Origin: a virus
Taxonomy: Duplodnaviria; Heunggongvirae; Uroviricota; Caudoviricetes
Strand: one strand, 5' to 3'
DNA length: 20,069 nucleotides
Virus record (IMG/VR): IMGVR_UViG_2778261642_000012
Span: 1-20,069 of that record
Position 1 is the first letter of the stretch; every line of letters begins with the position of its first letter. A program made the position numbers. Positions 11,401 to 14,400 of the stretch are shown one piece after another.

Positions 11401-14400
11401 TTACCCCCTCATTCAAACGGGCTTTCCAGGCTTTGAAGGCTGCAGATTTTGAATTGCCACCAGCACGTTTGGGGTATGCCAGCCATGCCTGCTCAAACTC
11501 CGGAGAGTATTCCGGTCGGTTTGAACGAACTCGCACAGACTCATCAGCAGATGCACCAACAGCTATTGGTTCATTGACTGGTTCTTTGACTGGTTCAAAA
11601 GAGTGACTGGTTCTGGGTGAATCTCCTGCACCACCCCCTGGTGCAACTCCTGCACTACCTGGTGAATTTGCTGCACCAGATAGTGAATTATTTGCACTAC
11701 CCCCTAGTGAATCTCCTGCACCATCAAGATGAAGGAGATAGATATTACTTGAGTTACCTTTTTCACCTTTCCGGGTGACTTTTTTTACCAGCCCGGAATC
11801 ACAAAGGGCCGCAATATGATTCATCACAGAACGTTTGCTAATCTCGCACTGGTCAGCAATATGCTGGTAGCTGGGCCAGCACTCACCCTGATCGCTGGCA
11901 TTATCAGCCAGCTTGATCAGAACCAGTTTTCGCAATGGATTACCCACTCGAATTTTCATCGCTTTAACCATCAGCTCCATACTCATGCTGCACCTCCGAG
12001 ATGCTTCATGTTTTTTCCGGAGCAAAAGGCTATAAGCGGCATACTGATGCGGTAATTACGGCCCAGCGGTTCACAAATCACCTTCTGACATTCACGGTCA
12101 ACCAGGCTAACACGTAGAACATGCCCTGCAGGTGTGGTGTACCACTGACCCGGACGAGGACAACGGAAAGTCTGATTGGTAAACCGTTTGAAAATATTCC
12201 GGATCATTTGCGCCCCCTTACCTCTGAAGGGTTCAGCGACAAATTTATGAGGCAGGCCAGTGCCGAAGCATCATTAATATAGTCATACAAGCTAACAGCC
12301 AGCGGAGATTCGGCTTTTGCCAACATAGGATAAAGCTGCTGCAGCCAGACCTGATGAATTGATGAAATGTAGGAATAGAGAACGCTGGCGTTATGTGCAA
12401 CGTCGCTCAGTACAGAGGGATTTGAAAGCTGTTTCTCCATCTGGTTAAAGGCATTGATGTATGCCTCTTTGAACTGGGCAGCACGTTTACCAGTGAAACC
12501 CATAGCAAGAAACGCAAAGCCGTCGCGGGTTATTTGGTAGCAAGGAAGTTTGCGACCTGTGCAATCAGTGTAATCACTCACCGAAAAATTGCGGGCAGTG
12601 AATGATGCTGAGCATTCAAGCGTACGGATCTTTTTCAGTACATCGTCATGACGTTTGGAGAAGAAGTTGGCAACAGCCAGGGATGAAGTAACAGCCTGAC
12701 CATCAACGATGGCAATTTCAGGTTGAGTGAGGGTTGGGATCGTAGCCATGATGGCAGCCTCTTTGGTGATTTTTAATAACTCACCACCAAGGCTTTCCAC
12801 GACCTTATTGGTGGTGAGACGTACAGGGGTGGAAATACCGGTCACCAAAGAACCCGGCCCAACCGAAGTTGGCCCTGCACGCCCCACCATAATTTGGGCG
12901 TAATGCTGCTCATGACACAAAAAAACCGCAAGAGCGCGGTTGTGCGCTTTGGTGAATTCCGGGTTTCCACGCCCGGCACCCGTTTTATAAGGTGCCTGAA
13001 CAGTGTAACGTCCCGGAATGGCAGAATCAATGTGCTGGTGGTCCTTCACACTCAACAAAATCACGCCTGAATTTCCACAAAGGACTAAAGCACTCATGCG
13101 GGTAGTCTTTGCGAAGATAGATAACGCGCTGTGTTTCTGGTTCCCAACGAATAACATGGACATAAAGCCCTCTTCCGTCACGAAACCAGCGGTTAAGTTC
13201 CTGCACAACTCGCCCCCCACAGTCAGGTAAAGTTCTCTGTGGTTACTTACAGCCAGGTGATTTGGTAATCTGCATTCATGCCGTAACAACAGGTGTTCAG
13301 CGACACTGACCACCAGCTGTTGCGACAAACGGTTATTTGCCGTTACACTGTTCATGCGTTAGTTTCTCCACAGACACAAAACGCCACGACGCCCGGAGCT
13401 GCACACTCGCGGGCGTCACTCTTTTCTGGAGCGCAGAAGATTTTGTAGACCAGTGCTGCATGTTCCTGGAGCTTCGAAATTGACAGATACAACTCATCAT
13501 TAATTGCTGTCTGCTCGTGTGGCTCCACGACCCCATCTTCGATTGCCGAACGAATCTGCTTTGAGTAATTCCCGATCTGTTCGATGACTTCCAGCAGGCG
13601 CTGGTTTATATCGGCGTTCTCTACTTCCTCAATTTCAGGAAGCGATACGAACACCCCACCAGCAGACTGTGCGACAGCATCCGCAATGTAGTGAGTGCCA
13701 GCCGCGCGCTGTAAAACCATTGCCCATCCCAGCGGGAAAATCTGATCGCCATCTGCACGAAGGCGGTTGAATAAAGCGTTCTCTGTTACATCCAGCCAGT
13801 CAGCAGCTTCAGCGTAACCCCCAGGCAATGCCGCGATAGTTTTTCTGACAGCTTTCACGTACCACTCAGGTTGTTTTTCCACTTTCCAGTGATGCTTACC
13901 CACGGCTTACCTCCTGTTCCTGTGGTTTAAACCCATTCTGGTTTTGGCTAGATTGAAAACGTGCCGGATAAAGAATCTGCATTTCGCTGATTTCACCCTT
14001 AAAAAAATTGGCCAGACGTTCTGCAAGATCGATAGATGGAATTTGTTCCAGTCTTTCAATACGACTCAGCGTCGCTGGATTGACCTGAACGCCCGCAGCA
14101 ACATGCTGCAAAGTAAATCCGTGCGCCTTACGCACATTCCGTAATGGTGATTGCATATAACCTCCACATATTGCGTGATGAGCATATTATTTCACGCAAA
14201 TATTTTGCGCAAGTTGATTTGCTTAACGCGCAATAAAGAAATGTAATAAACGCATGAACATAGGAAATCGAGTCAGACAACTTCGCCAGGCGAAGAACAT
14301 GAAAATCGCCGATCTCGCTGAAGCAATAGGAGTGGATGCGGCGAATATCTCGCGCCTCGAAACAGGTAAGCAGAAACAATTCACTGAACAAGCCCTGAGT

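Follow-up and report, generated by a model that had tools for sequence, protein, structure and literature searches.

How does a prophage that carries a gene for a replication initiator, and none for a helicase loader or a helicase, begin to replicate its DNA? Lambdoid phages of this kind have been catalogued: the available passages of Zheng et al. 2025 (PMC12315714) describe an O-only type, with an initiator and without loader or helicase, in 34 of 314 lambdoid phages, those of PMC8951638 define the Eru6 replication region of Stx phages, and both describe how the O-only and Eru phages replicate as not understood. We analyzed a 20,069-bp stretch of such a virus (IMG/VR record IMGVR_UViG_2778261642_000012, positions 1 to 20,069; hereafter, the window), in which the minus-strand initiator gene contains two sets of short repeats within 149 bp (11575-11723). 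From sequence comparison, this segment very probably serves as the replication origin of an Eru6/O-only lambdoid prophage, placed inside the gene for its own initiator. Our best overall explanation combines such an origin with an initiator whose C-terminal tail, nearly identical to the end of E. coli DnaT, would recruit the host replicative helicase and its loader; we put the probability of this combined reading at roughly 0.6.

The larger repeats are iterons. When the 20,069 bp were searched with at most one mismatch, the consensus GTGMAWNTNNTGCACYA matched the plus strand at 11617, 11641, 11662, 11683 and 11707 and had no match outside these five sites, with start-to-start spacings of 24, 21, 21 and 24 bp; repeat finders returned the same family. 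Shuffled sequences gave an expectation of 0.09 matches, and none of 100 shuffles reached 6. Each iteron is a dyad that reads (T/A)(G/A)GTGCA-N5-TTCAC on the gene strand; its two inverted 5-bp arms have their centres one helical turn from each other, as is usual for the sites of dimeric helix-turn-helix proteins. The array keeps the reading frame, as every spacing is divisible by three. The second set consists of a 10-mer, TGACTGGTTC, which has three exact copies (11575, 11587 and 11604), none elsewhere in the window, and a degenerate fourth copy at 11563-11572. A first-pass annotation of this DNA had placed five repeats and three 10-mers inside the replication gene, and this was borne out, the unit of the five being 17 bp; the low-complexity translation that it gave, DGAGDSLGGSANNSLSGAANSPGSAGVAPGGGAGDSPRTSHSFEPVKEPVNEP, is exactly that of the minus-strand open reading frame (ORF) 11168-11986.

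Are the repeats maintained for the residues that they encode or for their DNA? To address this question, we compared the window with the copies of the gene in Salmonella phage ST64B, a metagenome contig, Raoultella and Klebsiella pasteurii (68-88% protein identity). In all five lineages, the iterons lie at gene positions 263, 287, 308, 329 and 353, with identical spacing. The arms vary at 5 of 50 positions and the 10-mers at 2 of 30, compared with 8 of 25 in the 5-bp centres, 12 of 41 in the spacers and 80 of 255 in the N-terminal domain. At third codon positions, no variation was found in the arms (0/20) or the 10-mers (0/9; 0/29 jointly) versus 59 of 85 in the N-terminal domain (Fisher p = 3e-12). 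The residues encoded by the repeats, meanwhile, change between copies and lineages (GDS, NNS, ANS, GVA, NHS, NRS, GAA and others). Synonymous sites are therefore fixed while residues vary, which is the opposite of selection at the protein level. Similarly, the GAACCAGTCA repeats (the 10-mer on the gene strand) and the sequence between them are nearly invariant across the five lineages. The constraint on the repeats thus acts on the DNA and not on the protein. As for copy number, otherwise near-identical initiators of 242-302 residues have 1 to 9 iteron units (P0101-P0217; L003-L082) and relatives have 2 to 5 of the 12-bp units; two-iteron forms are frequent, one of them (P0130) occurring on 64 contigs.

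If the iterons are binding sites for the initiator, the repeat type should follow its DNA-binding domain. In other phages, the C-terminal core of the window initiator is joined to unrelated N-terminal domains, and most of these initiator families have a repeat array of their own at the same place in the gene: six 23-bp GGTCAAARTG units in mEp460_4F5, AAACCCNNTTTCG units in Stx2_14744, TGTCACG-N3-GTCACGA units in 640R1 and TCAGAATCTGA palindromes at 15-bp spacing in phiP27 and SfIV. The repeat scan of 75/02 gave no iteron-like array, only a short (GAACAG)n tandem repeat. PhiP27 and SfIV have like N-terminal sequences (judged by eye; they did not cluster together) and identical repeats, with different C-terminal cores, and the window's N-terminal domain and array are found unchanged alongside three different C-terminal tails. 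The repeat type thus tracks the N-terminal domain and not the C-terminal module, as expected if that domain binds the array, and we presume that the N-terminal winged helix is the iteron binder. Tandem repeats with a 12-bp period follow the iterons in four families (L087, 3074-3112; L085, 3427-3471; L090, 3204-3227; and the window, 11563-11613). Furthermore, mEp460_4F5 and Stx2_14744 have a common 12-mer, ACAGAGAWTAC, despite unrelated N-terminal domains (BLASTP E = 0.53) and different iterons, which argues that the 12-mers are a separate element, independent of the DNA-binding domain.

An AlphaFold2 model of the initiator, built on a 43-sequence alignment, has a confident winged helix (residues 1-85), a helical core (160-235) and a low-confidence tail. 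Both repeat sets, which encode residues 88-138, fall within the linker-coding segment between the two domains, where the predicted local distance difference test (pLDDT) score of about 30 over residues 91-156 suggests that the array encodes an apparently disordered linker. Together with the DNA-level conservation and the match between repeat and N-terminal domain types, this predicted disorder bears out the earlier description of an iteron array that encodes the linker of the replication protein.

Could the C-terminal end of the initiator indicate how a helicase is brought in? The initiator ends in ...VDYSQIPAGFRG and E. coli DnaT in ...SEPDSQIPPGFRG, such that the last nine residues, SQIPAGFRG and SQIPPGFRG, respectively, are identical at eight positions and form the extreme C-terminus of both proteins. 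In the DnaT orthologues of Enterobacteriaceae, IPxGFRG is invariant or nearly so, and the preceding ~10-15 residues are more variable. In some related phage initiators, the likeness extends to 13 of 18 residues (CVNHISEPDTEIPPGFRG compared with DVNTVSEPDSQIPPGFRG in DnaT), and the copies in prophages of Citrobacter, Pluralibacter and Pantoea have RDxNxxSQPDxxIPxGFRG. The tail is also portable: mEp460_4F5 and SfIV, with a different C-terminal core, have the same last 31 residues, and hits H67-H70 of the initiator search have the tail alone in common with the window protein. The fetched loci together have 21,157 ORFs; P.GF(R/T)G is the ending of 174, of which 166 carry the initiator core motif. 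Beyond the tail, BLASTP found nothing in common between the initiator and DnaT, and the Pfam DnaT model (PF17948), which finds E. coli DnaT at 3.7e-21, gave no match at E <= 10 to any of the four phage C-terminal regions scanned. The N-terminal oligomerization domain and the acidic PriB-binding linker of DnaT are likewise not present in the initiator, whose N-terminus is the winged helix. For some related proteins of phages, automated annotation gives the name 'primosomal protein I'; software has thus caught the similarity, apparently without interpretation. In the searchable literature, we found for DnaT residues 154-179 no role beyond a contribution to cooperative binding of single-stranded DNA, and a search of it for the PGFRG motif returned collagen papers only.

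Which helicase-loading genes accompany this tail? Pfam families of helicases, loaders and primases were not found among 37 ORFs of the window (all the long ones between and including the DUF1441 gene, 1587-2126, and the YafO-like gene, 19635-20069), so the statement in the first-pass annotation that no helicase-loader gene follows holds across the whole 20 kb. We classified 291 viral-contig and phage loci, each with at least 2.5 kb downstream of the initiator. The IPxGFRG tail occurred in 146 loci, none of which had a DnaB-like gene; 34 had a DnaC-like gene only, and 112 had neither. On the other hand, all 145 loci whose initiators end in ...L(T/N)F or ...YGxxxxW had a DnaC-like gene followed by a DnaB-like gene. 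This split was kept within the N-terminal domain cluster of the window (72 vs 53), across several other such clusters and across two core types. In a scan of one genome per species, 8 loci with the tail and without DnaB stood against 12 YG...W-type loci with DnaB (p = 8e-6), the eight tail-bearing genomes all being Enterobacterales, and the precomputed Pfam annotation of three further contexts agreed with the split. The two other tail classes follow the loader: the ...LxF tail was found with the phiP27-type loader in 110 of 110 cases and the ...YGxxxxW tail with the Stx2_14744-type loader in 35 of 35, whichever the DnaB subtype. Where a loader accompanies the DnaT-like tail, it is homologous to host DnaC over its full length (47-51% identity); the two remaining types match host DnaC in the ATPase domain only, at ~30-34%. 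The DnaT C-terminal peptide thus occurs only in relatives without a phage DnaB-like helicase, from which we infer, as the first-pass annotation had suggested, that origin firing would depend on host loading factors.

A loosely similar ending was seen further afield. In Halomonas, Vreelandella and Methylophaga, initiators that carry the same core terminate in ...(L/I)P(A/D/E)W(A/M/L)(R/K)(D/E); they comprise three loci (L358, L360 and L386), where only a DnaC-like gene comes after the initiator, and three proteins without genomic context (P0387, P0408 and P0423). This ending (hydrophobic, proline, any residue, aromatic, any residue, basic) resembles IPxGFRG loosely and may be an equivalent address label in those hosts.

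In the mechanism that we favor, dimers of the N-terminal winged helix would bind the five dyad iterons on roughly one face of the DNA helix and form a nucleoprotein complex. The duplex would then open beside the array, at a place that is uncertain: the GAACCAGTCA repeats are possibly an unwinding or loading zone, and the A+T-rich flank at 11723-11763, which a nearest-neighbor profile of the window ranks among the least stable 1.5% of 40-mers, is an alternative candidate. The disordered linker would let the C-terminal module reach the opened region, and this module, the helical core with its exchangeable peptide, would bring in a helicase loader. In relatives with the other peptide types, the partner would be the phage DnaC-like loader with the phage DnaB-like helicase. 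Here, the peptide copied from DnaT (IPxGFRG) would recruit host DnaB-DnaC directly, such that no phage loader or helicase gene would be needed. Taken by itself, this role of the tail is a tentative proposal, to which we give slightly less than even odds. A bolder version, possible but rather doubtful, is that IPxGFRG is the element of DnaT itself that recruits DnaC or DnaB-DnaC and that it was captured by the initiators of enterobacterial prophages; on this view, the initiator at the origin would do the work of DnaT in a sequence-specific manner and load the host helicase with no need of PriA, PriB or a phage loader.

Several observations weigh against this mechanism. There are natural variants with only one or two iterons. 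The stability profile has no strongly A+T-rich block on the downstream side of the iterons, which is the side used in lambda; the 10-mer region is only within the top 10% least stable, and the flank at 11723-11763, where the least stable duplex lies, is on the opposite side and is not conserved in sequence among relatives. A homology of the C-terminal core to the three-helix C-terminal domain of DnaT, which binds single-stranded DNA, was considered and rejected, as hhalign aligned the two with a probability of 1.65% and the Pfam DnaT model gave no match. The loci in the tail and helper counts are related, and some contigs were fetched twice. Since the tail is physically adjacent to the next gene and these genomes are mosaic, it is possible that the association is partly linkage; however, the DnaT-like tail occurs beside varied genes (PerC-like, DUF977 and DnaC-like) and matches a host protein, which argues against pure linkage. 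Finally, a 2026 cryo-electron microscopy paper (PMC13377028) suggests DnaT's N-terminal domain as a candidate recruiter of DnaB-DnaC, whereas the phage comparison points to the C-terminal peptide instead of, or besides, that domain.

Could the tail dock on the restart proteins rather than on the loader? The site would still be the origin, but the tail would contact PriA or PriB, and the PriA-dependent restart primosome would fire it, possibly along with Chi/RecBCD recombination-dependent replication. DnaT partners PriA-PriB, and its C-terminal domain docks on PriA, according to the available passages of the literature; the same passages place the PriA contact in the folded C-terminal domain, which has no counterpart in the folded core of the initiator, and the PriB contact in the acidic linker, neither of them at the extreme C-terminus. 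The window has 14 Chi sites, for an expectation of 0.64, and its scanned ORFs include no recombination module, in keeping with the phage class of PMC12315714, whose type phage, LLS, is also O-only. On the other hand, the two other tail classes follow the loader subtype, which argues that a loader is the general partner of the tail, and a DnaC homologue of the host type is present in 34 of the loci whose initiators have the DnaT-like tail. We therefore consider docking on PriA or PriB unlikely, though it is the best placed of the alternatives.

It is less probable still that the repeats bind the initiator or another regulator for autoregulation, copy control or incompatibility, with the true origin elsewhere. 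Plasmid iterons do serve in handcuffing and autorepression as well, and no strong unwinding element is evident beside the array, but no second cluster of iteron sites exists in the 20 kb, and in four or five other initiator families, the corresponding part of the gene has an array of its own, with short tandem repeats after it in most cases. In lambda and SPP1, where the arrangement is alike, the array is the origin. Moreover, the regulatory and origin roles can hold together. That the repeats are only a slippage-prone code for a Gly/Ser/Ala/Pro linker, with no function as DNA, is highly improbable, since the synonymous sites of the arms are invariant while the encoded residues differ and every unit is dyad-symmetric, even though the segment is predicted to be disordered and ranges from 1 to 9 units in nature.

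How does the proposed origin, with recruitment of the host helicase by the tail, compare with known systems? In lambda, four 18-19-bp iterons lie within the O gene, and P is the loader. The first-pass annotation had called the window a lambda-ori arrangement, and as an analogy this stands: in both, dyad iterons at about two-turn spacing lie inside the initiator gene, between the DNA-binding and recruitment domains, and the gene belongs to the early-right operon downstream of cI, cro and cII. It does not extend to the protein, which matches HTH_36 and not Phage_rep_O, nor to a marked A+T-rich block on the lambda side. Other differences from lambda are the five 17-bp iterons, the second, conserved repeat in 12-bp phase that comes after them, and the lack of a P gene or any other loader or helicase gene in the window.

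Iteron plasmids (pSC101, R6K and RK2) have a single Rep that binds iterons and uses host DnaB-DnaC. The module of the window is like them in having one element-encoded initiator on iterons, with reliance on the host helicase and loader being our proposal here. It is unlike them in that plasmid origins have DnaA boxes, need DnaA and keep their iterons outside the rep gene; in the window, the iterons are inside the gene, and the DnaA box consensus TTWTNCACA has 0 matches compared with 2.2 expected. With DnaT, the initiator has only the extreme C-terminal peptide IPxGFRG in common, and its proposed target is one particular origin in duplex DNA; DnaT, in contrast, associates with PriA-PriB at forks. 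The layout is that of Eru6, which, like the window, has a Rha/Ash gene and then an HTH_36 gene next to cI, and no loader or helicase. The available passages of PMC12315714 and PMC8951638 catalog the type and describe no iterons, tail or link to DnaT.

The initiator gene (Table 1) matches Pfam HTH_36 at residues 17-67 (2.8e-11) and PHROG 270, 'replication initiation protein' (1.5e-88). The Pfam scan (E <= 0.01) also returned B-block_TFIIIC and HTH_20, and DnaD_N only below its cutoff; it gave no match to Phage_rep_O (PF04492), the lambda O family, and NCBIfam gave no informative family. In PHROGs, the N-terminal part of the protein falls into 'replication initiation O-like' families, and the C-terminal part is matched separately. 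Among predicted viral structures, those matched by the model (E 6e-7 to 1e-3) were of phage replication initiators, 'replisome organizer' proteins and a phage DnaD. Proteins of the DnaD and replisome organizer kind, such as B. subtilis DnaD and SPP1 G38P, are among the closest known systems. The C-terminal core had no sequence match in Pfam, NCBIfam or the PDB, and yet a profile search with it found 7,982 representative clusters (50% identity), 3,710 of them at E <= 1e-10. Among the 150 core matches listed, the full-length-looking proteins are ~250-350 residues long, with the core in the C-terminal part; a search with a 123-residue C-terminal query gave mostly fragments, which were used as alignment rows only. 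The core thus defines a large family for which the libraries searched have no curated model.

Table 1. Positions of the putative origin, the initiator and the neighboring genes in the window.
Feature	Position	Strand	Basis or remark
PerC-like transcriptional activator, not a loader	10677-11165	minus	Pfam PerC (2.3e-09); PHROG 1324
Replication initiator gene, 272 residues, ATG at 11986	11168-11986	minus	Pfam HTH_36; PHROG 270
Portable C-terminal tail module, residues 240-272, ending in SQIPAGFRG (11171-11197)	11171-11269	minus	Sequence comparison
C-terminal helical core, residues 160-235, FEQAWxxYPKRAGGNSK...FFGPDRHF	11282-11509	minus	AlphaFold2, pLDDT 70-88
Predicted disordered inter-domain linker, residues 91-156	11519-11716	minus	AlphaFold2, pLDDT ~30
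Second repeat element, TGACTGGTTC (gene strand GAACCAGTCA)	11563-11613	either	Three exact copies and one degenerate copy, mostly in 12-bp phase
Iteron array, five 17-bp repeats	11617-11633, 11641-11657, 11662-11678, 11683-11699, 11707-11723	either	Repeat search
Least stable duplex adjoining the array, 30% G+C	11723-11763	either	Nearest-neighbor stability profile
N-terminal winged-helix DNA-binding domain, residues 1-85	11732-11986	minus	AlphaFold2
74-residue ORF, function not known	11983-12207	minus	PHROG 1153, no Pfam match; TGA overlaps the initiator ATG (ATGA)
Rha/Ash gene	12204-13355	minus	Pfam
cI	14254-14946	divergent from the minus-strand operon	Pfam

The DNA of the initiator gene is 100% identical to gp42, 'replication protein', of Escherichia phage 2H10, and the gene is 98-99% identical to genes of Stx2a, Stx2c, cdtI and other E. 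coli phages, including that of the Eru6 reference phage Stx2a_WGPS2 (AP012537; 98.8%); the copy in phage cdtI has 66 extra bases. At least 80% of the gene was found in 897 of 5,426 complete E. coli genomes, and the module occurs in Stx2, cdt and serotype-converting phages. In some database proteins (P0125, P0127, P0141, P0147-P0152 and P0173), the initiator up to about residue 215-250 is fused to PerC, Dam or RusA; the tail was probably lost there by deletion or frameshift in prophages undergoing decay.

On the minus strand, the genes run in the order cro-like, CII-like, Rha/Ash, 74-residue ORF, initiator, PerC-like and Dam, followed by LexA-DBD-like, RusA, KilA-N, DUF968/HNH, Q and then the lysis genes. 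The stop/start overlap of the 74-residue ORF with the initiator suggests translational coupling, and its product could be a co-translated accessory factor. The same arrangement is found in two further loci (L330 and L331), and other initiator types have a different small ORF in its place. GATC sites do not cluster at the proposed origin: there are none in 11294-11889 (~600 bp), and the total for the window is as expected. A gene for a Dam-type methyltransferase (10024-10710, minus strand) nevertheless lies two genes downstream of the initiator. A promoter and terminator scan around the initiator gene gave nothing above chance. The Chi sites (GCTGGTGG) are spread over 3512-19287, and none of 100 shuffles reached their number; 11 of the 14 are on the minus strand, and one lies within the initiator gene (11457-11464). 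No recombination module of the Red, Erf or RecT type was seen among the window ORFs scanned.

An iteron origin inside the initiator gene is a classical design, and the Eru6/O-only type is already catalogued. In the searchable literature, which covers the field in part (subscription journals may differ), we did not find this origin, an exchangeable C-terminal peptide that predicts the loader, or the identity of the tail with the C-terminus of DnaT; that literature gave no papers on the replication of phage 2851/Stx2c and nothing relevant on the origins of ST64B and SfV. The module is very common in E. coli. The DnaT tail and its all-or-none link to the helper genes offer a concrete and cheaply testable explanation of how these phages replicate. 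In the bolder version of the mechanism, an exchangeable address label naming the loader used would be found in the last 10-30 residues throughout this large initiator family. The result also bears on replication restart in E. coli, where a 2017 review (PMC5778457) and PMC13377028 state that it is unknown how the PriA-PriB-DnaT complex recruits DnaB-DnaC. As to which part of this preprimosome does so, the phage data point to a peptide of nine residues.

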